DNA of 64,000 nt from a virus (taxonomy: Duplodnaviria; Caudoviricetes). This document shows positions 24,084 through 47,251 of the stretch, piece after piece; position 1 is the stretch's first letter; each line of letters begins with the position of its first letter. Location of the stretch: IMG/VR virus record IMGVR_UViG_3300048998_000202. One strand, 5' to 3'. The notes under the pieces are model-generated. The model made no database searches. It was given only the letters and a program-made list of their open reading frames with translations, and had not been told where the DNA came from. The position numbers and the translations under genes were made by a program.

Positions 24084-24674
24084 TCAGGACGTGGGGGTCT
24101 GCGACCGCTCGGTCAGCATCTGCTGGAGACGGTTCAGGGCCTGCTCCTGCTTCTCGACCTTGTCCGCCAGTTCGGCAGTGGTCTCCTTGGTCTCCCGGCG
24201 GACGGCCTGGGTCTCCTTGCGGGCGGCCTTCAGCCCCTCCTCCAGCCGATCCTGCCGCCGCGACAGACGCCGGGTGATGTCCGAGACGGCCTGGAGAGCC
24301 CCGGCCTGAGCGTCGTACACCTGCCCCTGCTGCGGAGTCAGCTCGTTGCGGTCGGCCTTGGTCAGAAGATCTATGGCCGTACGGATCCGGCGGTTGGCCT
24401 TCTTGGTCTGGTACCGGGCCGCGCCCCCGTGCTCGGAGGCGTGCATGACGCGGTAGCCCACTTCCCGCTCGTTGGTCAGAGCCCGCTGGTGCTTGTCCAG
24501 CAGCTCCTTCTCCGCACGTCTCACCGGGCTGCGGTCGAGCCGGATGTTGATTCCGGCCCACTCCGAGAGCTCCTCGTACGTGACGACGGTGTCCGGATCG
24601 AGGTCGCGCAGACCCTCATAGATCAGGACCCAACGGGCGACGTCGCCCTTGGGCTCGAACGGCTTGGTGCCCAT
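24084..24674 (-). CDS. Accessory protein co-transcribed with the RAMP gene (possible winged-HTH plus coiled coil)
   Basis: 196 aa; VVTYEELSEWAG and REVGYRV segments; long charged coiled-coil C-terminus. Confidence 0.7.
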   Translation of the reverse strand: MGTKPFEPKGDVARWVLIYEGLRDLDPDTVVTYEELSEWAGINIRLDRSPVRRAEKELLDKHQRALTNEREVGYRVMHASEHGGAARYQTKKANRRIRTAIDLLTKADRNELTPQQGQVYDAQAGALQAVSDITRRLSRRQDRLEEGLKAARKETQAVRRETKETTAELADKVEKQEQALNRLQQMLTERSQTPTS

Positions 24675-24718: not shown

Positions 24719-25297
24719 TCAGCCCTGGATCTGGGTGACCTCGACGTCGAACCGCCCGAACCGGGGACGGTAGTCACCCAGTCCGATCATCTGGCCCGCC
24801 TTCTCGGCGATGCTGGTGATCTGGTCCAGGTCGAGCTGGCCGTCGTCCACGATCAGGTCGGCCTCCAGCGCCCACTGCGGGAACTTGGGCCGGGTGCGCA
24901 TGACGCGCGAGGTGGTGACCCCCACGGAGAGCCGGGAGACGAAGTTCTTGTCCTTCCACAGTCCCTCGACCGTACGGGATCCGCTGTAGCCCAGGGGGTG
25001 GATCTCGTTGACGACGACGACACCTCGCTCGACGGCCGGGCCCTGCCGGGTCATCTTGGCCGCCTTGATCAGGCAGGCGTGGATGTTGGCGCCGGGGATG
25101 TACGGACCGGTCTCCTCGTCGAAGTACAGGCCGCCCTCGAACTCGATGCGGGCCATCTCCTCGTGGTCGGACTCGGTCTTGATGCGCTTGCCGGAGACCT
25201 TTTTGAGCTGCTTGGTGATGGTCGCCAGCGGGTCGGACAGTTGCGCGTTGTGCATCAGCAGCGACGTGGTTCCGATGATGGTCAGGCGGACCTGCAT
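24719..25297 (-). CDS. Stand-alone Cas7/Csm3-like RAMP protein (Vipr-like RNA-binding effector)
   Basis: beta1 VRLTIIGTTSLLMH; GPYIPGANIHACL (cf. Csm3 PYIPGSSLKG); C-terminal G-loop IGLGDYRPRFGRF; ATG at 25297 after GGGAGA; adjacent to the pentamer array. Confidence 0.75.
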   Translation of the reverse strand: MQVRLTIIGTTSLLMHNAQLSDPLATITKQLKKVSGKRIKTESDHEEMARIEFEGGLYFDEETGPYIPGANIHACLIKAAKMTRQGPAVERGVVVVNEIHPLGYSGSRTVEGLWKDKNFVSRLSVGVTTSRVMRTRPKFPQWALEADLIVDDGQLDLDQITSIAEKAGQMIGLGDYRPRFGRFDVEVTQIQG

Positions 25298-25334
25298 GAG
25301 TTCTCCCTGGTGTCGGTACTCTCTGGCGCCACCG

Positions 25335-25364
25335 AACATACTCCAAGGATTGTTGGAGTGTCAA
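25335..25364 (-). promoter_or_regulatory. Sigma70/HrdB-type promoter with a palindromic operator in the spacer
   Basis: TTGACA-CTCCAACAATCCTTGGAG-TATGTT. Confidence 0.75.
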
Positions 25365-30135: not shown

Positions 30136-30358
30136 GAGGGTCTCCGTTCGTGAAGGTCTTCTCGTCCTTTACGCGGAGTCGTCACGGGTCCAACAGGAAA
30201 GGCCCCGGCCCGGGGGTACCGGGGCCAGGGCCTTTCGTGGACGATCGGCGCCACGACTCAGGTCCGTGGGGGACGGAAGGAATCGGCGCCGCCTCGTGCA
30301 CGGGGAGCGTGGCACGGTGGGGTAGACGCTGTCAAGGCGAATGTGTTCCACTGGAGAG

Positions 30359-30598
30359 ATGGAAGATCAGCACACGATGCAGACAGACACCCCCACCGAC
30401 GACCTGAAGCTGTACGGGATCTCCGAGCTGGCGGATCGCTGGAAGGTCTCTAAGCAGCGGGCTGACGAGATCGCCTCCAAGCGCCTCCCACAGCCCCTCA
30501 CGCTCAAGATGGGCCGCATCTGGACAGAACTCCAGGTGGAGAACTTCGAGAGAGGGTGGGTCCGTAAGACGGGGCGTCACATCGTCCCCAGGACTTGA
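30359..30598 (+). CDS. Small HTH DNA-binding protein (AlpA/excisionase-like)
   Basis: LYGISELADRWKVSKQRA..LPQP..GRIW..QVE; start may be 30377; its stop codon overlaps the first cassette leader of array B. Confidence 0.75.
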   Translation: MEDQHTMQTDTPTDDLKLYGISELADRWKVSKQRADEIASKRLPQPLTLKMGRIWTELQVENFERGWVRKTGRHIVPRT

Positions 30599-31362
30599 TA
30601 TCGTCAGGGGTTACTGGGCTCGGCAGGGCTAGGTAGGGCAGGACTGGGCACGGCATGGGAGGGGCTTCCTACGGGGAGCCCCTCAGCCGTTGACAGGCGC
30701 TCTTGGGAGTGACAGAGTCAGGTCTTGCAGGACCACACGTGGGCGTGTGGAGAAGGGGCGCTTCTTCCAGGAGGCGCCCCTTCGTCGTTTGACAGACCGG
30801 CACGGGGGTGACAAAGTCAGGTCTTGCATGATGGGAAGGACACACGGTTGGTTTCTGAGGCCGGAACCGTGTGGATGCGATCGGCCCTCAAGGCCGTGGA
30901 CGCGTCCGAAGGCCCCCTCTGAAGATTCCTGGAGGGGGCCTTCGTTCGTTTGACCGGACGACATTAGGGCTGACAGGGTCAGTTCTTACAGGGCACCGTC
31001 TGGTTGGGCACGGTAAGGCATGGTGGGGTAAGGCACGGCTGGGCAGGGGAGGGCGACCATCTTCGGATGGTCGCCCTCAGCCGTTTGACAGGTGCGGGTG
31101 GAGCTGACAGAGTCAAGTCTTGCAGGGCCGGGCCCGGTAGGGCGTGGTTTGGCGTGGTGTGGTTGGGCAACGCATGGCATGGCATGGCAGGGGAAAGGCC
31201 CCAGGATTTTAAAATCCTGGGGCCTTTCGTTACGCCCTGAAGGAACTGATAGAGTCATGGTCTCGGCAGGCCGAGGCTAGGTAAGGCACGGCGGGGCAAG
31301 GCACCGCCCGGTAGGGCAAGGCATGGGGAAGGCCCCCTCGGATTCTCCCGAGGGGGCCTTCC
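30596..31362 (+). ncRNA. Array B: six promoter-terminator cassettes, four with GGY-NN tracts (8, 11, 13, 12 units) and two with non-pentamer hairpin cargo
   Basis: TTGAC...TGACAGAGTCAAGTCTTGC leaders; e.g. GGCCG GGCCC GGTAG GGCGT GGTTT GGCGT GGTGT GGTTG GGCAA; a hairpin follows each unit. Confidence 0.85.
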
Positions 31363-31387: not shown

Positions 31388-32377
31388 TCACGCCTTGGTG
31401 ATCGTCGCGATGCCCCTGGGGTTCAAAATGGACATATTGACCATTTCGTCAAATACCCATCCCTTCCAGAAGGCTTCGACCATGTGGTTCTCTTCCACGT
31501 CCAAACTGTACAGAACGGGGAAAACGCCCAAGAAGTTGGGCTCCGGGGTGAGGAAGACCTTGCCCTGCGGGACGATGATCGACCGCTGGATCTGGAACTC
31601 GCCGAACGAGGTGATGGTCTCGCCCGCGACGACCCGGTCCTTGAAGGCCCAGCCCGTCTGGTTGATGTCCCACCGGTACAGGTCCCGGAAGTCGAACGGG
31701 TTGATCAGGATCCGCGCCGACTGGAGCTCGTGCATGTCCGTCATGGCGACGGCCGAGTACAGCGAGCCCGGCGTCAGGTAGCCCGACGCCTCGGTGATGT
31801 TGTGGTTCGGGGTGACCGTGTGGTCCGGGCGGGTGGCGTAGTCCGTCAGCGCCGCCTGGAGCAGTACGAGCAGCCGGGTGTCCTCCTGCTTGAGGATCGC
31901 CTGCTTGGTCTCGTCCTGGGCCTGCTCGACTGCGTTGATACGCAGGTAGAACAGGTCCTCCTTGCGGATCGCGGGGCGCGAGGCGATACGGAAGAACCGC
32001 ACCGGAACGCGCTTGCCCTCGAACGGAGTCACACGGACTTCGCCCTCGGTGCCGGACATGATGTACGCCTGGCCCAGGTCGTCCCACACGTCGTACTCGA
32101 CGGGGGTACCCGGGGTGACCGGGTCCTCCACGAGCACGTTGCGGGTGATGCCCTGGTAGCGGAGCTTGAGCTGGATGGGACCGACCATCCCGACGCCCAG
32201 ACGGCGGATGCCGCCGGTCTCGTCGGAGAGGATCAGCGCCATCTTCTTGACCTTCGCCTCATGCGTGAGAGGCGCGGCCTTCTCCCGGCGGGCGAGGATC
32301 GCGGAGGCGTAGTCGTCGGACTTCTTGGCCACACGGCCACGGAGCGACGAGGTTGCGGCGAGAGTCTGAGTCGGCAT
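31388..32377 (-). CDS. Major capsid protein
   Basis: 329 aa after the scaffold and decoration genes; PIQLKLRYQGITRNVL and FDEMVNMSILNPRGIA resemble actinobacterial myophage capsid proteins. Confidence 0.88.
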   Translation of the reverse strand: MPTQTLAATSSLRGRVAKKSDDYASAILARREKAAPLTHEAKVKKMALILSDETGGIRRLGVGMVGPIQLKLRYQGITRNVLVEDPVTPGTPVEYDVWDDLGQAYIMSGTEGEVRVTPFEGKRVPVRFFRIASRPAIRKEDLFYLRINAVEQAQDETKQAILKQEDTRLLVLLQAALTDYATRPDHTVTPNHNITEASGYLTPGSLYSAVAMTDMHELQSARILINPFDFRDLYRWDINQTGWAFKDRVVAGETITSFGEFQIQRSIIVPQGKVFLTPEPNFLGVFPVLYSLDVEENHMVEAFWKGWVFDEMVNMSILNPRGIATITKA

Positions 32378-34092: not shown

Positions 34093-37000
34093 TCAGACAG
34101 GCATCGGCAGCGGCGTTTCGCCCTGCTCTTCGGCGGGGCTCATGAGCTGCCCCTGACCACAGTTGGGGCAGACGTCGCCCGCCTGGACTCCGTCGGGGGT
34201 GGCCTCTCCCGTCGGCGGCAGGATCGAGGTGTCCATGTCGACGCTCACCGGGTTGGTGGCGTCGGCCTGGAATCCGCACGCCGGACATTCGAGGTCCGGT
34301 ACGCCATCGCCGGGGGTACCGGGGACTCCCTGGCCCGCGTCCGGGTTGGGGATCTGTCCGTCGGTGTCCAGGTCCTGAGGTCCGGCCGGGCCCTCGGGAC
34401 CTGTCGGCTGGCCGGGTCCCTGGGGCGTGTCGGGCCCTGGGGTGAACGGCTGGCCGTCACTGCTGACCGCGTCGGCCGGGAGGGCCTGCGGTCCGATCGG
34501 CATTCCGTCGGGTCCGACCATCATCTGCTGGCCGGGCTGCTGGAGCGGCTGTCCGTCGGGTCCGAGCATGGCCGGGTCGACTGGTGCCCCCAGCTCGTTC
34601 GGATCCTGCGGCTGGCCGTCCGGGCCGAGCGCGTTGGGATCCTGGGGCGAGTCTCCGCCCATCGGGTCGCCGCCCGGCTGTACCTCGGCCTGTACTTCAC
34701 CGGGGAGTGTGCCGGGCTGCTGACCCTGGTCCGCAGCGTCGGGGTTGACGGGGTTGCCGTTCTCGTCCAGGGCCGCCGGGTCGGCCGGGTTTTCGACCGG
34801 CTGTCCGTCAGGTCCGATCTGATTGGGGTTGGCCGGATCCTGGAACTCTGCGACGTCCTTCCGCAGGTCCATCTGTCGGGCCTTCTCCAGGTCGGGGTCC
34901 TGGAACATCTTGGGGGGTGCGACGTAGCTGCACACCTGGCAGGTGGCGCCGTCGAAGGTGTCGCGGTCACCGCACACCGGGCAGGCGTCCTCGCGCAGGG
35001 TGTCCACGTCCTCGGGGGCCTTCGTCTCGCCGTAGGCCAGTTTGCGGCCCAGCAGGCGACGAGAATCCTCGGGGGGAGTAGCCCCCCGGCCCGTCTGGAG
35101 ACCCTTGCCGTTCTCGGTGGCGAACGGGGAGTGCACCGGGGCTGGGTCGTAATGGGCCGCAGCGTGATCCAGCATGGCGGAGGCCACTCCTCGTCGCTTG
35201 AGGTTGTCGTCCACACCGATCCAGTTGATATGGCCAGCGGGCTTGACGTGCCAGGAGTCCGCGTGGCCATTCATGCCGCAGTGGTCGCAGTGCTGATCGG
35301 GCCGGAAGTCGTCAGGTCCCTTCTCGTCCCAGTACTCCTCGCGCTTCTTGGTCCACTCCAGCTTCCCGACCTGCTGCCTGTCGGGAGTGTGGGCGCGCAG
35401 CACGTGGTACTTGTAGTCCGGTCCACCGTGGTACGTGAAGTGCAGGCCCTCCGGCAGATCACCACTGGCCCCGGCCACATGGGAGTTCGCCGGGGGCTGG
35501 TGCAGGTCCGGATTGTGCTCGCGGCTGAGGTCCTGCCAGGTCTTGCGCTGGTTGCGCTGCACGGTGTTGCGGCCCTTCTGACCGCCTGAGGTGTCACCCT
35601 CGGCGTTCAGGCGCTGCCGGGCGAGCCAGGTGACGGCCTGCACCTCGTGCGGGGGCACTTCGCGGCCCTCACGGTCGGAGATGACCGCTGCGGCCTTGCG
35701 GTAGTGGTTGGCCACGACCTCGTAGTGCTTGCGGTTCTGCGAAGGGAAGCCCTTGACGTCGTCGGCGTTCAGACGGCGCCCGGCGGCGACGGACAGGGCA
35801 TGACGATCCACGACGACCTTGTCCGAAGGCTCCTTGGGCTTTCCTGCCGCCGCGTCCTCAGGGCTCTGGGGCTTGTTACCGCCGTGCTCGATCAGGGAGG
35901 CGAAGTCCTGCGTCTTGGGCCCCTTGAGGGCTTCCTGGTGGTTCATGCCGTCCATGACCTTCTGGGCGGCGTTGGCGTGACTGCCCATCACCATGATGCC
36001 CTCGCCCTTGCCGACGGCCCGCTGCTCGTGGAAGGCCCGCGCGGCGTTGTGCTGGTTGGCCCACCAGCCCTGCTGCGGGGAGTAGGCGGAGAGGACGCCT
36101 GCGCCCTTGTGGGCGGCTTCGGCGTCGCTCTTGATGCGGGGATCCAGTTTGGCGATGGACTTGGCCACCAGGTGGGCGTCGGGGTACCAGCGTTTGCCCT
36201 GCGCCTTCTCCTCGCTGGTGGCCTGGTCCCAGTGGTCCACGACGTGGTGGTGGGACAGGCCCATCTCCTTGAACCACGGATGGTCCTCGGGTGGCGTGGC
36301 CGCCGCACCCTCGGCCATCAGATCGGCCAGGGTGACGCGGGAGCCGGTGGCGGCAATCTGCCTCACCACGGAGTCCGGGATCTCCTCCGGAGTGGGGTAC
36401 GACTTCGAACGCGCCCTGTGGGTGGTGACGAAGTGGCCGTCACCGTCCTGCTTGAGACCGACCTCGGCGAAACGCGGGTCCTTCTTGGCGGCCTCGAACA
36501 TCCGGTCCTGGGCGTACCCGGAGCCCTCGGGAGTCTTCCCGGGGTCTTTGGCCTTGGGCGGCCAGTTGGTGGCGCGTGCCCCGTGATAGGGAGCCTTCTC
36601 GCCGTATTCATCCGGGGTGTCGGAGAGGGGGGACTTCGCCACGTAGGCGTGGATCTTCTTGATCCCTGCGGCCTTGGCCGCCTCGGTCCGGTGGTGGCCG
36701 TCGGCGACCTGGAAGACGCCGTGCCGGTGTACGAGGACGACCGGTGGCATCTGCTCGGGGTTGTCCCGGTACCCCTCGGCAGCGTGCTGGACGCGGTAGT
36801 CACCGGCCTCGTGGCGCTTGTGGTCGATGGCGCTCGGGCTGACCATCGCGTGATGGAAGGTCAGGTCATCGATCGAACGCTCGTTGGCGTCAGGGTCGTC
36901 GGGGGTGGAGTGGGCCAAGTTGCTGGCTGCCCATCCGATCATCTCCCCGTCGGCGTGCTCGGCCCGATCGCCGTGGATCTCGGGGTCCCCGTAGATCTCC

Positions 37001-37848
37001 GGGTGCCGCTCGCCTACCTCGTCCCAGGACAGGCCCCGCCCGGCAGTGGTGTTGATGGAGTCAAGACTTGCGGTACTCTGGATCTCGCTCGGCTCGGCTC
37101 GGATTGGCTTGGTTGGGCTTGGCACGGCAAGGTACGGCATGGCATGGGTGGCGGTCTCTCCGGAGGCCGCCACAGCCATTTTCATACCCCGGTCATCGAT
37201 CCCGGTGAAAAACGCCGTCGGATCCGCCGGGGGCTCCACCAGCAGCGAGTTCTCGAAAAACCGCAATCCGTAGCAGGTCTCACGGATGATCTCGCCGATC
37301 TTCTGCCCGGAAGCCGTCGTCCGGTAAAGCGTCATTCCCTTTGATCCAGGGATGTGGGCGCAGTATTCGGCAGGGGTAGTGGCCTTGTTGCCACAGGCGG
37401 AGCAGACGGAGAAGGCGACGTCGGTGCCCATGCTGGTTCTGGCGATGTTGCCGTTCATGATCTCGGCGGCCAGCTTGGGAAAGCGCAGCGCATCGACCTC
37501 TTGGAGGACCTCGACCCACCAGTCCCGGCTGCCGTCGCGGTTGCTGTCCTTGTGCAAAACCGCGTCGATGATCACACCACGGGCGCGCTTGTGATCTTCG
37601 TTCGCGTGATTGACGAAGACGGGCTTACCGATAAACGTCCGGTATCCCTTCTCCAGTTCCTCAGCGGGGAACTCGTCGAAGTTGTCGTTGCACCGGCTGG
37701 AGATGGCGCGGGAGCGCACGTACAGGTAGCCGGGGCGCACCTCATACGAAAAGTGGTGCCGGTGGGCGAAGCGGCGCAGCTCACGGGCACCCGCGTCCGT
37801 GGGGACGAGGGCCTTGGTCATGATCTGGGCGCTCGCGTACTTGAGCAT
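34093..37848 (-). CDS. Capsid maturation protease polyprotein (protease, ParB/Srx-like, glycosylase-like, GNAT-like and Zn-ribbon segments)
   Basis: NDNFDEFP..TFIGKPVFVNH..TSMG..FFENSLLVEPPADPTA; VADGHHR; WYPDAH..SAYSPQ..VVVDRHA..EVQAVTW; INWIGVD..KRRGVASAML; CPVC/CPAC. Confidence 0.8.
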   Translation of the reverse strand: MLKYASAQIMTKALVPTDAGARELRRFAHRHHFSYEVRPGYLYVRSRAISSRCNDNFDEFPAEELEKGYRTFIGKPVFVNHANEDHKRARGVIIDAVLHKDSNRDGSRDWWVEVLQEVDALRFPKLAAEIMNGNIARTSMGTDVAFSVCSACGNKATTPAEYCAHIPGSKGMTLYRTTASGQKIGEIIRETCYGLRFFENSLLVEPPADPTAFFTGIDDRGMKMAVAASGETATHAMPYLAVPSPTKPIRAEPSEIQSTASLDSINTTAGRGLSWDEVGERHPEIYGDPEIHGDRAEHADGEMIGWAASNLAHSTPDDPDANERSIDDLTFHHAMVSPSAIDHKRHEAGDYRVQHAAEGYRDNPEQMPPVVLVHRHGVFQVADGHHRTEAAKAAGIKKIHAYVAKSPLSDTPDEYGEKAPYHGARATNWPPKAKDPGKTPEGSGYAQDRMFEAAKKDPRFAEVGLKQDGDGHFVTTHRARSKSYPTPEEIPDSVVRQIAATGSRVTLADLMAEGAAATPPEDHPWFKEMGLSHHHVVDHWDQATSEEKAQGKRWYPDAHLVAKSIAKLDPRIKSDAEAAHKGAGVLSAYSPQQGWWANQHNAARAFHEQRAVGKGEGIMVMGSHANAAQKVMDGMNHQEALKGPKTQDFASLIEHGGNKPQSPEDAAAGKPKEPSDKVVVDRHALSVAAGRRLNADDVKGFPSQNRKHYEVVANHYRKAAAVISDREGREVPPHEVQAVTWLARQRLNAEGDTSGGQKGRNTVQRNQRKTWQDLSREHNPDLHQPPANSHVAGASGDLPEGLHFTYHGGPDYKYHVLRAHTPDRQQVGKLEWTKKREEYWDEKGPDDFRPDQHCDHCGMNGHADSWHVKPAGHINWIGVDDNLKRRGVASAMLDHAAAHYDPAPVHSPFATENGKGLQTGRGATPPEDSRRLLGRKLAYGETKAPEDVDTLREDACPVCGDRDTFDGATCQVCSYVAPPKMFQDPDLEKARQMDLRKDVAEFQDPANPNQIGPDGQPVENPADPAALDENGNPVNPDAADQGQQPGTLPGEVQAEVQPGGDPMGGDSPQDPNALGPDGQPQDPNELGAPVDPAMLGPDGQPLQQPGQQMMVGPDGMPIGPQALPADAVSSDGQPFTPGPDTPQGPGQPTGPEGPAGPQDLDTDGQIPNPDAGQGVPGTPGDGVPDLECPACGFQADATNPVSVDMDTSILPPTGEATPDGVQAGDVCPNCGQGQLMSPAEEQGETPLPMPV
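37053..37173 (+). ncRNA. GGY-NN pentamer cassette nested antisense in the protease gene
   Basis: TGATGGAGTCAAGACTTGC leader, 11 pentamers at 37091-37145, GTGGCGG/CCGCCAC hairpin. Confidence 0.75.
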
Positions 37849-41234: not shown

Positions 41235-41633
41235 TTAGAGCATGGCGCGCAGGAGGGTGTTGAGGTCGGCCGGGGACAGGTCCTCCCCGTTGCCCAGGCG
41301 CTCGCGCAGCTCACTGACCTTGCGGTCGGTGTCGCTCATCCCGTAGTAGGGGTCGGGGGTGTGAGCAGTCACGACATCCTGTACGGCGTCCATGTCGGTG
41401 TCGCCGAGAATGTACAAGGCCCGGCCGCTGTCGTCACCGGTCAGTACGACCTGGTAGGCGTTGCGATCGCCGAGGTGGGCGTAGACCTCTTCGATGAGCT
41501 GGCGCTGGTGGACGTCTCCGGTGACCTCCAGGACCTGGGCGTGGCCGTCGAAGGGGATGTGGCCGTCCTGTGGCGGGACGAGCATGCCCTCGACGTCCTC
41601 TTCGACGGCGTCTTTGTCGATGTTCACGGCCAT
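41235..41633 (-). CDS. Hypothetical protein
   Basis: 132 aa, overlaps the polyprotein stop. Confidence 0.65.
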
Positions 41634-44600
41634 GTCGGGTCCTCGTCTTCGTCAAGGGCGGCGTAATGGGTGTCGGCGATGTCGAGCCGGTCCAGGTTGG
41701 CGGCCTGCACGCTCGCGCCCTCGTTGATGATCGCAGCCTGCTCGTGGGGGCTGTAGTTCTTCAGCGCCAGCTTGGAGAGCATCGCACGGGCCTGGAGTGC
41801 GATCTCGGCCCCGTCTCCGGTGCCCCGTACGGGGCTTGAGGAGCCGTCAGAGGACAGGTAGGAGGCGTGGCTCTGGAACTGGGCGATGAGGTCCTCCAGG
41901 GACCCCACAGCGGCCGTACGGGGCGGGGTGAGGGATTCGTCGTCGGTCAGGTCCAGGCCGTCGCCGTCGGTGAAGGGCAGGGCGCCTTCGGGTTCCATGT
42001 GAAGGGTGGCCTCGGCGCCAGGGGTGAGCTCCTGGTGCTCGGGCATACCGGGGTGTCCCGGGGGCATGGCGCCGCCCTCCCCTCCCTTGGGGCCGGAGGG
42101 GCGGGGCGGTCCGAATCCCTCCCCGAGCATGGAGATCGCCTCCGAGGTCATCGGGACGTCCCTCAGGGCCCGCCAGTACGCCGTCACGCCGTTCTCCAGG
42201 GGGGTGTCCTCGGTGCCGGGGCTGGAGGCCAGGGGGTCGTCGGACTGGGCGATCTGCTGGGGGATGGACGCGATCCGGTCGCCCAGTTCGTTGGGGGTGA
42301 TGGATCCCCAGTTGTCGGGGTCGGACTGGGAGGCCCAGCCGGTGGAGCCGGGGTTCTCGGCGAGGTTGCGGGGCTTGGTGGGACCCGGGGTGTAGTTCGG
42401 TGCGGCCGGAGTGGGCTCTCCCCAGGGGGAGTTGATCGCGGCCTCGTGGTGGGCGCCGTCAGGGAAGTCGTGCCGCACCCAGTCCCCGTTGCCGCGAGGG
42501 CGCCAGGAAACGCCCTTGAGGTGGACGGGAGCACCGGCTTTCAGAGGGACCTCGGCGTCGTCGTGGTCACCCATGGAGATGACGTCTTGTGCGACCAGTT
42601 CTTCGGGGTCGGTCTCGATGTGCTTCTTGGCCGGGGTGTGGGCGTGCAGCACCACATGGGTGTTGTTGTCACGACTGTCGCTGACGCCTGAGTAGTGGGC
42701 GGCCTGGTCCTTGTCCGGCGTCCAGTGCGTCCCGAGTCCCTGGTCCGAGAGATGCGTCGAGAGGGCCTGGGCTCGCTCCGCGACCGGCCGGGAATCGTCG
42801 TGCACCACGCTGTGCACGTCCGACGGCAAGTGGACCGCCATGCCCCGGTGCAGGGTGTCCCCCAGGCGTGGGTGGATGGAGTCCCAGTCGGTGTAGACGG
42901 ACTCGTGGGCCCGCTTGGTCTCGCCGTCGGAGTGCTCACCGTCGTAGCAGTGCTTGTTGTGGCACTGGTAGACGGGATCGCCCCATTCGTCACGGTGGAA
43001 GCGAGACCCCTCCTCGTCCTCCTCATACTCCGGTTCGTGGTGGTCGGGTTCGTCTTGCTCTTGGGCTGCCGTCAGGCCGTGCATGCCCAGCAGGAACGCG
43101 AACTCCTCGGGGTCGTGACCCTGGGCGCGGGACCACTGGGCGAGCGCCACCAGCGGAGTGACCTCGATCTCCCGGGCAGAAGACCGCACCAGCTTGTTGT
43201 CGCCGGAATCGATGTCGTAGCGAAGGACGACCTTCTTCGGCACCCACTCCGGCTTGGCCGAGTCCTCGGTGACGTCCCTGCCGAACATCCCCCGGGACTG
43301 GGCCTCGTACTGGAGGGCCAGAGCGTGGGAGCACATGCGCCCGGCGAACCGCGAGAAGTCGTCGTTGGCGCCCCAGTGGTAAGCGCCCCACTTGCAGCCG
43401 CAGGTGTACGTGGCCACCGAGTGCCGGGAGCCGGGGAAGCGCTGTACCCCGGTCTCGTAGACATGGTGGTCCCCCTGGACCTCGCCGAAGACCACGCCGT
43501 CCGAGGCGAGGGTGATGCGGACCTTGCCCTCGGAGCGGATGCGCTTGGCCTTGCGCTGGACATCGGCCCACGCCGAGGTGAAGTGGAACCGGAACTCGGG
43601 GTCGATTCCGGCTTCGGCGATCAGCGCGTACGGATTGAACGCGGCCTTCTTGCGGCCGTTAGTCGGGCGCCCGTCCTCGTCCCACTCGGTGCCGTCGTCA
43701 TAGGTACCGCCGGAGCCCGTCATGGCGTCGGCGTCAGTAGACCCCTGAGAGATGATCTCCTCCTCCGGGGCCTCGTCGGCTATGTCGGCGAACGAGCCGT
43801 CCTGCTGGTTGGCCTGCTTACGCTGCACCTTCGGGGGCTCGTAGTCCTCGTCCCCCGGGTCCCGGGCCAGGCGGTGCGGTTTGGCCCCGGGGAAGAACAG
43901 GTGCTTGTGGTCGATCCAGTCCCCGACGCGCTTGACGTTGTTCAACAGCGGCTCGCCATCGTGGCCCACCCCCACCATGTGACCCTGGACGAGGTGGCCC
44001 GTCTCCGAGGGCCGGTCATTGCCGTTGAACCTGTTTCTCTCGGCACGAGCAGCCCGACCCTGCATCTCCTCGTGGGTGTCATTGCCGTACTCGTCGTTGA
44101 AGGCGTCCATATTGCAGTTGTCGTCGCAGTACTCGTCGTGCTCGTGCCCACGGGAGTAGTTCGAATCCGGGTCCACGGGGTGTCCATGGTGGTCCAGGTC
44201 GTAGACGCTGACGCCGTCTTCCTTGGCCCCGGTGACATTGTTGGTGGACCGCTCGTCCGCGCGCCAGTCCCCGAAGCGAAGGTAGGTCGGCGAGGGTTCC
44301 GCCGCTCCCAGACGACGCTCGGCGGTGCCGTAGTCGTGCAGGTTCACCGCCCCGATGTGCAGAGCACCGTCGTCGGTGACCTTGTGCACGATGCGGTGAC
44401 CCCGGGACGCCTTGGTGGCGTACCAGCCCTTCAGCGGATGCCGCAGATCATGCGTCTGAAGGTTCGGGGCCCCAGCGGCCAGGGCGTCGATGGTGGCGCC
44501 GATCTGCTTCTGGGAGGGCTTGTCGAGCTTGCCCAGCTCCTTGGCGGCAGCCGGGTGGAAGGTTACAGGCCGAGATTCAGCCGGAGCTGCTCCCACTTCA

Positions 44601-47251
44601 CCGGGGGCTCCTGGCTGTTCTCCCGCTCCTGCATCGTCTTGACCAGATCCGGGTCGGGTTCGAGGCTTCCCACGACCCGCAGTCCGTCCTCCGTCATGTA
44701 CGCCATGGGGCTCGCCTCCGCTCTGCTCATCAAGTCCACCCTCCAGGGTACTCCAGGAATTGTTGGGGTGCAACGTCTCCACGAAGGCACCCTCGGCCGA
44801 CATCTGCCCGTAGTGCGACCCGTCCACCAGGTGGTGGTGGGTGTACTGGCTCGGGTACGACGGCGGGTACTGGGTGTCCGGGTCGGCCGCGCCCTCGGCC
44901 CACGAGATGCCGTGGTGCAGGCCGCCGTTGCCCTCGTGGCCGTGCAGGATCACGTGCGTGGGCGGGTGCGGGTGCGCCCCCTGCTCGTGCAGGGCGTCCG
45001 CATCCACGTCCGCGTCGATCTCCGCGTCGGAGGGGTCCTCGTGGTCGTCGTTGAACAGGTGCGCGTTGCCGACCTTGGAGTACAGGTGCCGCGCCCGATC
45101 CACCATCGGCTTGGACTTGTCGTGGACGAAGGCGTGGTCCTCGGGGCTCAGGTGCACCGCCGCGCCCGTGTGGGTCTCCGGGGCGGGCTTGGGCTCCAGC
45201 AGGTGCACGCCCTGCGCCTGGTGCTCCTCCTGGAGGGCCTGGGCGTCGGAGTGCGAGACGTGCTCGCCCGAGGGCAGGTGGAAGTCCGCCTTCTTGATCG
45301 GCGGCCCGTGGTAGCCCTGCTCGTTCGGGTCGTTGTGGTCGGTCCACACGTGCTCGCCCGGCACGTGTGCGGTCAGCACCGGCCAGTCGTTCTCCGGGTC
45401 GTTGTCGTTCGCGGCGTGCTCGTGGGCGTAGTCGGGGCTGGTGGAGACCCAGTCGCCCTTGTTGATGTCGTGTATCCCGTGCGGGACGGCCCGGTAGATC
45501 TGGATGTGCCCGTGGTCCCCGAAGTGGCTGTGGCCCTCGTCCGGACCGGGCGCCTGGTGCATCATCGAGTACTCACCGGCCGTGACGTGGTGCGCCCAGG
45601 GGGCATCCGTCTCCCGGCCCTCGTGTCCCCACACCGGCTTGGACACCGCCGTCACCCCTGTGATGTGCACCGGAGCGCCCGTACGGACCGTGCGCTCCTG
45701 CTCGTGGCCACCGTCGAAGATCTCGTGCTGATCAGCGTAGTCCTGCCACTCCGGAGTGCCGTGCTGCACGACGTGCTCGGGATCCACCCGGCCGTGCAGG
45801 ATCACCCCGTGGGTGTGCGGGGTGGCGTCGTCCTCGTCCTCCTCGTGGGCCAGGGCGAAGTTGTGCGAGGTGTACGGGTCGGTGGACCAGTGGATGCCCG
45901 CCTCGTGCCCCCGGAAGCCCTTCTGGTTCAGGTAGCCGACCGGATCGGCGTGCAGGCGCTCCACGTCCTCGTCGCTGGCCAGCCCCAGGTTCAGCCCCCG
46001 GTGGACCTCCTCGCCGCCGACGGAGCCGTGGACCGTACGTCCCTTCTGCACAGTCTTGCCCCGGGTGTAGCTGTCCCACCACGCCTTGCCGTCGTTCGTA
46101 CGCTCGCCGTGGTCGATCGCGTGGGGGTGACGACGCTGCATCTCATCCATGAGTGCGGACGCGACCCCCTTGCCCCGGTGCGCCTCGGCAGTGTCGAGAC
46201 CCTCCACCCGGACCTTCTGGTTCTTCTTGAACGGCACCAGGTAGGTCAGCGTGCCCATGTGCTCGCCGGTCTCCGGGTGCAGCGCGTGGAGCTTGACCCT
46301 GTCGTCGAAGGTGCTGCCGCCATAGTCGGCGGTATCGGCAGTGAAGGTCGGCTGCACCTTCTCGGCCGCCGCGTATTTGGCTACACTCGCAGTACCCCGA
46401 AGAAAGGCGCTGTCGTGGCCCGCTCCCCCATGCCCATCCTCGAACGCTTCCTGAGCCACGTCGATGCGTCGCCTGATCCCGAAACCTGCGACATGTGGAA
46501 CGCCCGGACGAACCGCCTCGGGTACGGCCAGTTCTGGGACGGCACCTACACCGCCTCCGAACGCCCCCGGATGGTCGATGCCCACCGATGGATCTACCTC
46601 CACACCCATGGACCCACGCGCCTGCATGTACGCCACACGTGCGACATACGCGCCTGCGTCAAGCTCGGGCATCTCATATCCGGCACCCAAGCCGACAACA
46701 TGCGAGACCGCGACTCCCGAGGCCGGGGCGTCGTACCCGACATGCGGGGTTTCGCCCGAGGCCACGGCACCAAACTCACCGCTGAGCAGGTGCTGGAGAT
46801 TCGCACTCGCGCCACCGGCCAGTGGGGAGAACAGCGCCGCCTCGCCCGGGAGTTCGGAGTGGGTCATCAGACCATCAGCGCGATCCTCTCCGGAAGGCGC
46901 TGGGCGGAGTGATCCCATGTGGACGGGCAGCGCGATGTCGGGCCTGTCGCGCAGTACGTCCGTGAGTTCTTCGTAGTCCTCAGAGGCCAGATGCCCCCCT
47001 GCCGCCTGCCGGGTGCCAGTGGAGTACGGAGAGAGCTGTGAAGGCCCGTACAGGCCCCGTCCAGCCCCACCGTCCAGGATGACGTCATACTCCTCCCCCA
47101 AGGCCGGGGAGTAAGTGACCTCCTCCACCCGCCCGGGGATCCCGTCAACCGTCATCACCCGCTGACCTTGGGAGTACTCGGTGGGGTAGTCCCCCGCCGC
47201 CATGCGCGACAGCGCGGTGTCGTGTGCGCTTTCGCGGCGTCCCAGCCCCAT
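41624..47251 (-). CDS. Polyvalent head-associated polyprotein (GNAT, 3-4 ART-like, RelE-like, SWIM domains)
   Basis: [11 protein letters not shown]; VHRG..HWST..EQE; IYRA..WVSTS..NEQ; LHRG..HWT..DAEV; RelE-like segment; YTCGC..MCSH. Confidence 0.75.
44563..44730 (-). CDS. Overprinted antitoxin-like small protein (alternate frame inside the polyprotein)
   Basis: [12 protein letters not shown]...[14 protein letters not shown]; alternative start 44706 with GGAGG; promoter motif at 44745-44774; ends at the start of the RelE-like domain. Confidence 0.55.
46415..46912 (+). mobile_element. HNH homing endonuclease nested antisense in the polyprotein gene
   Basis: [33 protein letters not shown] plus C-terminal HTH; GTG start after AGAAAGG. 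Confidence 0.85.

Follow-up and report, generated by a model that had tools for sequence, protein, structure and literature searches.

The locus analysed here belongs to a 64-kb stretch of DNA (the window) from an uncultured phage of 66% GC, in which nearly all genes lie on the minus strand. Among GenBank phages no close relative was found; weak DNA matches came from Mycobacterium and Rhodococcus phages (proteases). The window encodes a head maturation protease fused to further domains and a small RAMP protein, Vipr, and the plus strand of the protease gene carries a complete pentamer-repeat cassette. The coordinates of these features are given in Table 1.

Table 1. Features of the in-gene cassette and of the genes around it (window positions).
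Feature	Position	Strand	Remarks
Head maturation protease fusion gene	34093..37848	-	1251 aa; protease residues 26-213; DUF7178 534-743; GC3 0.855
vipr gene	24719..25339	-	206 aa; RAMP effector that would load the guide
In-gene cassette	37052-37178	+	Promoter box, 12 in-register GG pentamers, GC hairpin; nine further copies in the window
Promoter box and leader	37053..37071	+	TGATGGAGT then CAAGACTTGC; -10 hexamer TGGAGT
Alternative promoter candidate	37052..37079	+	TTGATG, 16 nt, TACTCT; putative, read from the consensus
vrRNA repeat tract	37089..37148	+	12 NN-GGY units; the last is the conserved handle AT-GGG
3' tail	37140..37178	+	11-bp GC hairpin 37148-37173, enclosed by GGC/GCC pairing, then CAGCC
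Window-specific segment, codons 224-268	37045..37179	-	Protein sequence encoded across the cassette
Own allele of the predicted target site	37592..37626	-	Codons for KPVFVNHANEDH; 18/24, or 17/22 without the handle

The host gene and the Vipr homolog

The protease domain matches the profiles phrog_18299 (E=9e-23, residues 57-206) and phrog_2774 (E=3e-69). Residues H81 and S139, which are probably catalytic, are invariant across 19 orthologs. By profile match and conserved His/Ser motifs, the host gene is an HK97-type prohead protease. The head module also includes a 1875-aa protein (41624-47251, minus strand) with GNAT, ParB C-terminal and RelE-like segments. The Vipr protein of the window aligns with the solved 'SUSP1 Vipr protein' (PDB 36pp_D) over residues 18-202, nearly its full length, with E=3.3e-35. 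Directly downstream of vipr lies a gene for a 196-aa protein (24084-24674, minus strand) without Pfam or PDB sequence match, which by its position is a candidate accessory (vap) gene.

VIPR systems of phages combine the minimal RAMP protein Vipr with vrRNAs that consist of 9-16 GGY/NN pentamers and a structured tail; the GGY triplets serve as contacts for the Vipr protomers, and it is the NN pairs that read double-stranded DNA, skipping one base from each pair to the next (10.64898/2026.04.26.720920). The skipped base usually falls on a codon wobble position, binding silences transcription, and the natural targets are mostly competing phages and satellites (VIPR 2026 bioRxiv preprints). Since the window holds a Vipr homolog together with GGY/NN cassettes, we take the cassette family to be vrRNA genes. 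Readings of the repeats as a sponge for a TRAP-like ring protein, as two-tier G-quadruplexes or as DNA iterons were dropped, given the VIPR papers and the Vipr homolog.

Anatomy of the in-gene cassette

When the whole window was scanned for GG at 5-nt spacing, at least 8 of 11 positions were found in ten arrays only, including the in-gene one. Five of these are on the plus strand (30607, 31002, 31126, 31275 and 37091) and five on the minus strand, and each has a conserved box on its 5' side and a GC hairpin on its 3' side. In the in-gene copy, GG recurs in perfect register 12 times between 37091 and 37147 (GGC eight times, GGT twice, GGA once and a final GGG), that is 10/12 Y and 12/12 GG, and with its intact GG this array is cleaner than five of the nine canonical ones. 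Its NN letters, unlike those of all other cassettes, are TC TC TC TT TT TG TT AC AA AC AT, followed by AT in the handle unit; this unit is A(T/G) in all cassettes. The leader GAGTCAAGACTTGC at 37058-37071 has no mismatch to the family box, for which the window contains 8 matches against 1.6 expected. The hairpin is closed by a second helix (37140-43 with 37175-78; -27.6 kcal/mol, z=-3.95), and the tail, including the CAGCC 3' of the stem, is of the type found in cassettes 22130(-), 30617(+) and 31002(+).

An nhmmer profile built from the 20 cassettes of the sibling phage G002 alone recovered all ten window arrays. It matched the in-gene copy from promoter box to tail (37037-37182, plus strand; E=1.8e-15, 52 bits), with a score level with those of two canonical copies. 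Leader box, GG register, hairpin and profile match thus confirm the observation, made in an initial annotation of this DNA, of a full cassette on the plus strand within the 1251-aa ORF. The tract is present as described there; its count of 11 pentamers is to be replaced by 12 GG units, of which the last is the conserved handle. We have hardly any doubt that the cassette is real and belongs to the vrRNA family. Pro/Ala linkers do yield CC/GG-rich DNA, from which a resemblance to a cassette might arise by chance, but the match to an independent profile over leader, tract and tail and the perfect leader box already refute this explanation, to which we attach practically no weight; moreover, no other place in the 64 kb or in the roughly 80 orthologous linkers exceeds 7/11.

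No Rfam family was matched at its gathering score, and ARAGORN predicted no tRNA. In two further plus-strand units, 30689-30791 (nhmmer E=4e-6) and 30804-30900 (E=0.026), the family promoter box and a terminator hairpin are present and the pentamer tract is absent; these units may be cassettes that lack a guide or have suffered a deletion, or they may specify short RNAs with another function. The plus-strand vrRNA cluster, on an otherwise empty strand, is headed by a gene for an 85-aa protein (30341-30598, plus strand) without Pfam match, which may be a regulator of the cluster.

The linker encoded on the opposite strand

On the minus strand the cassette corresponds to residues 224-268 and thus lies right after the protease domain, as the initial annotation had stated. 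The frame is also open as claimed there: residues 223-270 of the ORF run through the cassette without a stop, and the peptide quoted is exact. A real structural ORF on one strand therefore faces a complete cassette on the other, in agreement with the proposed dual coding. On these sequence grounds we are inclined to believe that the same ~125 bp specify a Pro/Ala/Thr-rich linker on the minus strand and a predicted guide RNA on the plus strand.

The segment was expected to be an indel among protease orthologs, and this is what was found. The closest ortholog, L001 (77% identity), has 6 codons against the window's 45, a net difference of +39 codons that spans hairpin, tract and leader. In an alignment of 35 ortholog sequences, conservation extends through PPADPTA..G.D..G and resumes from SWDE.GERHP; the region between is hypervariable in both length and sequence. 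The right-hand border of the insertion is not clean, because the leader-encoded peptide Q-S-T-A-S-L-D resembles Q-T-T-A-S-L-E of cassette-free orthologs (in different codons), which points to an older motif Q-x-T-A-S-L-D/E. The suggestion that the cassettes are mobile was not borne out: target-site duplications are lacking, and both in-gene copies known so far (see below) look like orthologs and not like fresh insertions.

The cassette has left a mark on codon usage. GC3 of the segment is 0.71 as compared to 0.855 for the whole gene, within the lowest 1% of same-size windows of the gene, and GCA, AGT and CTT occur as consecutive codons beneath the leader box. Most GG lie in codons for Pro, Ala, Thr and Ser, whose first and second bases cannot vary. 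With a repeat of period 5, the protein is held to a five-residue pattern, X-P-X-X-(A/T), so that every change of guide rewrites the linker. In an AlphaFold model of residues 1-420, which is poor overall (mean pLDDT 56), residues 229-274 have pLDDT ~30 and no secondary structure; the cassette-bearing linker is probably disordered.

Candidate promoters of the in-gene copy

Canonical cassettes of the window and of G002 carry, in 29/29 cases, an extended -10 of the form TG-N-(T/C)A..GT, with A at hexamer position 2. In the in-gene box TGATGGAGT, G replaces this invariant A, and reversion to A would be synonymous; no -35 was found at the canonical spacing. A consensus promoter scanner made no call at the in-gene copy and none at the canonical cassette promoters either, which makes it uninformative here. 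The alternative candidate TTGATG-16-TACTCT would put the RNA start ~3-4 nt 5' of the first unit, and a TAC(T/G)CT element is common to this copy and to the second in-gene copy, that of locus L010.

The altered box bears on the main rival explanation, in which a cassette recombined in frame into a tolerant linker, was silenced, and survives as a fossil by virtue of that tolerance. The invariant A has been lost even though its reversion would leave the protein unchanged, a -35 is missing, and the L010 copy has lost the TG of the extended -10. The repeat pattern itself suggests that insertions of this kind are easily tolerated, the antisense of GGYNN repeats being intrinsically almost stop-free, and the feature is rare (2 of ~80 loci). 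What these arguments have to be weighed against is the state of the second copy.

A second in-gene copy and its distribution

We scanned about 80 loci homologous to the protease, 45 from IMG/VR and 36 from metagenomes. An array was found in only one other locus, L010, which belongs to the 154-kb phage G001 and whose protease is 73% identical; it occupies the same site, antisense and in frame. The L010 array retains 11/11 GG and shares its last units, its handle, a hairpin (10 bp in L010) and CAGCC with the copy in the window. At the base of the stem, the pair is A-T in canonical copies, T-A in the window in-gene copy and T-G in L010. The guide letters of the two in-gene copies are identical at 7/18 NN positions, the linker around the cassettes is unalignable across orthologs, and downstream of the linker the domains of the window phage differ from those of G001. 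No decayed cassette was found in the linkers of the 45 IMG/VR orthologs, the best score being 7/11 in L028, where there is no leader. The 36 metagenome loci contained no further in-gene cassette, and a scan of IMG/VR for the handle common to both in-gene copies returned, as a cassette, only L010's own contig.

The two in-gene copies resemble each other and not the other guides of their own genomes, which argues for common descent followed by guide turnover. Because the surrounding linker diverges fast, an unselected cassette should have lost its register. Here, two protease genes whose products are 73% identical have retained every GG, a stable hairpin and the handle; their NN letters, in contrast, are no more alike than expected at random. 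Such a pattern argues for a cassette that is maintained rather than decaying. Together with the cleanness of the array noted above and the significant match of the guide to a conserved motif (see below), it leads us to regard the fossil explanation as unlikely, although no other rival comes as close.

Vipr is present in G001 and G002 and absent from six complete siblings (G003, G004, G005, G007, G008 and G009). The in-gene cassette occurs in Vipr-positive phages only (the window phage and G001) and in 0/6 of the complete Vipr-negative siblings. The initial annotation had named conservation of the segment as protein in phages lacking the RAMP gene, together with a lack of plus-strand RNA, as evidence that would speak against it; no phage without Vipr has the segment, so that this test does not refute the proposal. 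Of 43 cassettes in the window, G001 and G002, 2 lie inside real coding sequence and the other 41 are intergenic or touch genes with their run-in only. One candidate of G002 (72638), intragenic by its stop-to-stop span, was rejected since it lies between two genes.

The arrangement of the canonical copies varies among these phages. G001 (L061-L062, L066) has vrRNAs at 56.8-58.1 kb (plus strand) and 151.1-151.4 kb (minus strand), in head-to-tail arrays without individual promoters. Its canonical vrRNA tail is GGGTTCCCC, hairpin, GGGGGCGTTCA, and its in-gene copy has the window-type tail. G002 (L067-L074; 160 kb) has at least 20 promoter-bearing cassettes over ~93 kb (56-149 kb), far from its vipr gene at 108 kb. 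Dispersed guides seem to be normal in this phage group.

The distribution also bears on a possible action in cis, in which an antisense RNA, or a hairpin in the sense mRNA, would tune translation or pausing between protease and cargo domains, the likeness to VIPR being a by-product. The hairpin is indeed stable and stands exactly at the domain boundary, and any plus-strand RNA would be perfectly complementary to the protease mRNA. However, some 78 orthologs do without the feature, and neither the GG periodicity with free NN, nor the co-occurrence with vipr, nor the code match to rival alleles is explained in this way; we consider cis action improbable.

Decoding of the guide

The guide was decoded with the published one-base-skip code, and the 80% match line of the VIPR papers was applied. 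Over all DNA compared, the best matches fall on one site, antisense of the protease codons K-P-V-F-V-N-H-x-N-(D/E)-(D/N)-H. Against the motif VFVNH(N/K)N(D/E)(D/E), the guide matches at 20/24 (83%), or at 19/22 (86%) without the handle unit. The alleles reaching 20/24 are those of L036/G005, L050 and L111, which have Asn at x and two acidic residues; at these sites nine consecutive units are perfect and each skipped base is on a wobble position. With scrambled guides on the same DNA, 20 was reached in 1/500 trials (unit-permuted) and 0/500 trials (letter-shuffled). In a 530-kb set made up of three complete sibling genomes and the window, the guide reached 19/22 and scrambled guides at most 17. 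When 41 real guides of three phages were compared against 81 protease loci, the in-gene guide ranked first.

IMG/VR contained no perfect target; the best matches are 83-86%. Of the 11 exact 9-unit matches in that database, 3 fall in protease homologs and the others are chance matches in AT-rich phages. At the 3'-most unit, guide and target do not match; with SUSP1, it is at the 3' end of the vrRNA that the DNA begins to unwind (10.64898/2026.04.26.720927). For the guide of the L010 copy, no site in four genomes exceeded the null, and IMG/VR contained no exact match of 9 units. G005, a predicted target phage, has neither vipr nor arrays. Its GC content is 59% as compared to 66% for the window phage, and it may infect another host; L050, with the same 20/24 site, has 69%.

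The phage's own allele has Ala (GCG) at x, where the central codon breaks the match, so that identity drops to 75-77%, under the 80% line and at the level of scrambled guides. It is nevertheless the best site within the 64-kb window, which contains no self-target of 80% or more. Self and rival alleles differ by 2/24 letters, in a single codon. Across the window and 77 homologous loci, the motif G-(K/R)-P-V-F-V-N-H-x-N is invariant except for x and the two following positions, and residue x takes seven values (H, V, N, K, A, S and E) across 49 distinct alleles. This variation could reflect escape from guides of the in-gene kind, or x could simply be a tolerant position.

That the best window site is the phage's own protease allele might suggest weak auto-targeting, delaying late genes; alternatively, the RNA might be a decoy or competitor that loads Vipr without a real target. 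There is precedent for the latter in solo vrRNAs of F5 satellites and of vipr-less SUSP1-family phages, which redirect or dilute Vipr complexes (10.64898/2026.10.15.759431). Both ideas seem very unlikely to us. Since the window phage itself encodes vipr, a decoy would weaken the phage's own silencing, and the match to its own site (17/22) is no better than that of scrambled guides and falls short of the 80% line.

Discussion

VIPR itself is already known (2026 bioRxiv preprints). New here are the antisense, in-frame site within a structural gene, the presence of a copy with an altered guide in a second phage, and the predicted aim at rival alleles of the host gene. At the sequence level, the in-gene copy is a vrRNA gene: its 12 GGY/NN units are within the 9-16 range, a cognate Vipr is encoded in the same element, its 3' tail is conserved and structured, and its predicted natural target exceeds 80% with the skipped bases at wobble positions. 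It departs from the usual published arrangement, which is no formal criterion, in that it is not intergenic next to vipr.

The closest known systems are the type II vrRNAs of SUSP1 and of a Pseudomonas fulva prophage (10.64898/2026.04.26.720920, 10.64898/2026.04.26.720927). Tandem GGY/NN pentamers with a structured tail, a cognate Vipr with clear sequence similarity to that of SUSP1, skipped bases on wobble positions, targets in competing phages (predicted in the present case) and the lack of any self-hit of 80% or more (here within the 64-kb window) are all common to them and to the window phage. In contrast, their vrRNA genes are intergenic and flank vipr, whereas the one described here is 12 kb away, antisense in a structural gene, and also read as protein. 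The SUSP1 tail is a pseudoknot, and the in-gene tail is a simple hairpin with a closing helix. The window phage also differs in being an uncultured, GC-rich phage with weak DNA matches to actinobacteriophages, and in that its in-gene vrRNA is predicted. The solo vrRNAs mentioned above are similar in lying away from a vipr operon and acting in trans with a Vipr encoded elsewhere; however, they are in noncoding DNA of elements without vipr, whereas the window phage has a vipr gene in addition to the vrRNA gene, and the latter overlaps a coding sequence.

Antisense genes embedded in bacterial or phage coding sequences offer another parallel, in that both strands are informative and the host gene departs from its usual choice of codons. 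In the present case, the embedded gene is a predicted programmable guide RNA that imposes a period-5 constraint on the protein. Virus-borne mini-CRISPR arrays target genes of relatives in inter-viral conflict. As here, the guide is directed against a conserved gene of close relatives and the own allele is mismatched, but these arrays are intergenic, use contiguous spacers and depend on host Cas proteins.

The best-supported reading, towards which we lean on the sequence evidence given above, is that the vrRNA gene antisense in the post-protease linker is a working guide against rival protease alleles. The RNA would be transcribed early, and its internal promoter is probably weak or has been re-made. 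Vipr protomers would bind the GGY triplets of the RNA and leave the NN pairs exposed, and the complex would then bind double-stranded DNA through the one-base-skip code at the VFVNH(N/K)N(D/E)(D/E) site, which lies towards the 5' end of the protease gene in related phages infecting the same cell. Binding would keep the rivals' head-assembly operon from being transcribed. At a distance of 500 bp from the guide, the allele of the phage itself would escape because it has Ala where the targets have Asn or Lys. A guide inside the gene would keep weapon and immune allele together through recombination.

If this is true, programmable RNA and protein can share the same bases, the pentamer code dictating the linker pattern described above, and phages may keep a guide within a gene of which it attacks the foreign alleles, an arrangement that would link weapon and immunity in mosaic genomes. 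The single codon, and the two letters, that separate self from target would provide a natural test of mismatch discrimination. Guide repertoires would also be under-counted. The three VIPR preprints (10.64898/2026.04.26.720920, 10.64898/2026.04.26.720927 and 10.64898/2026.10.15.759431) make no mention of intragenic or antisense-embedded vrRNA genes. The discovery paper examines the intergenic flanks of vipr (10.64898/2026.04.26.720920), and the database of a language-model survey of noncoding RNA is intergenic-only; as published surveys cover intergenic DNA only, intragenic guides would be systematically missed.

More tentatively, intragenic vrRNAs may form a hidden class of guides, in which guide and immune allele make up one recombination-proof unit comparable to a killer allele or greenbeard; we think this possible rather than probable. 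It fits with the location of the guides for which a sibling target is predicted, which would be kept next to, or inside, the immune allele of the gene that they target. Only one other window guide, 31275+ (31275-31329), has a significant target in siblings. Its score is 19/20 on the capsid genes of G001, G002 and G005, and 16/20 on the site at 31506-31535 in the capsid gene of the phage itself. For both guides, the best site in the phage's own sequence is its own allele of the target gene, at a distance of 231 bp for 31275+ and of 501 bp for the in-gene guide. The remaining 39 guides have their best own-genome sites at scattered places and at noise level.
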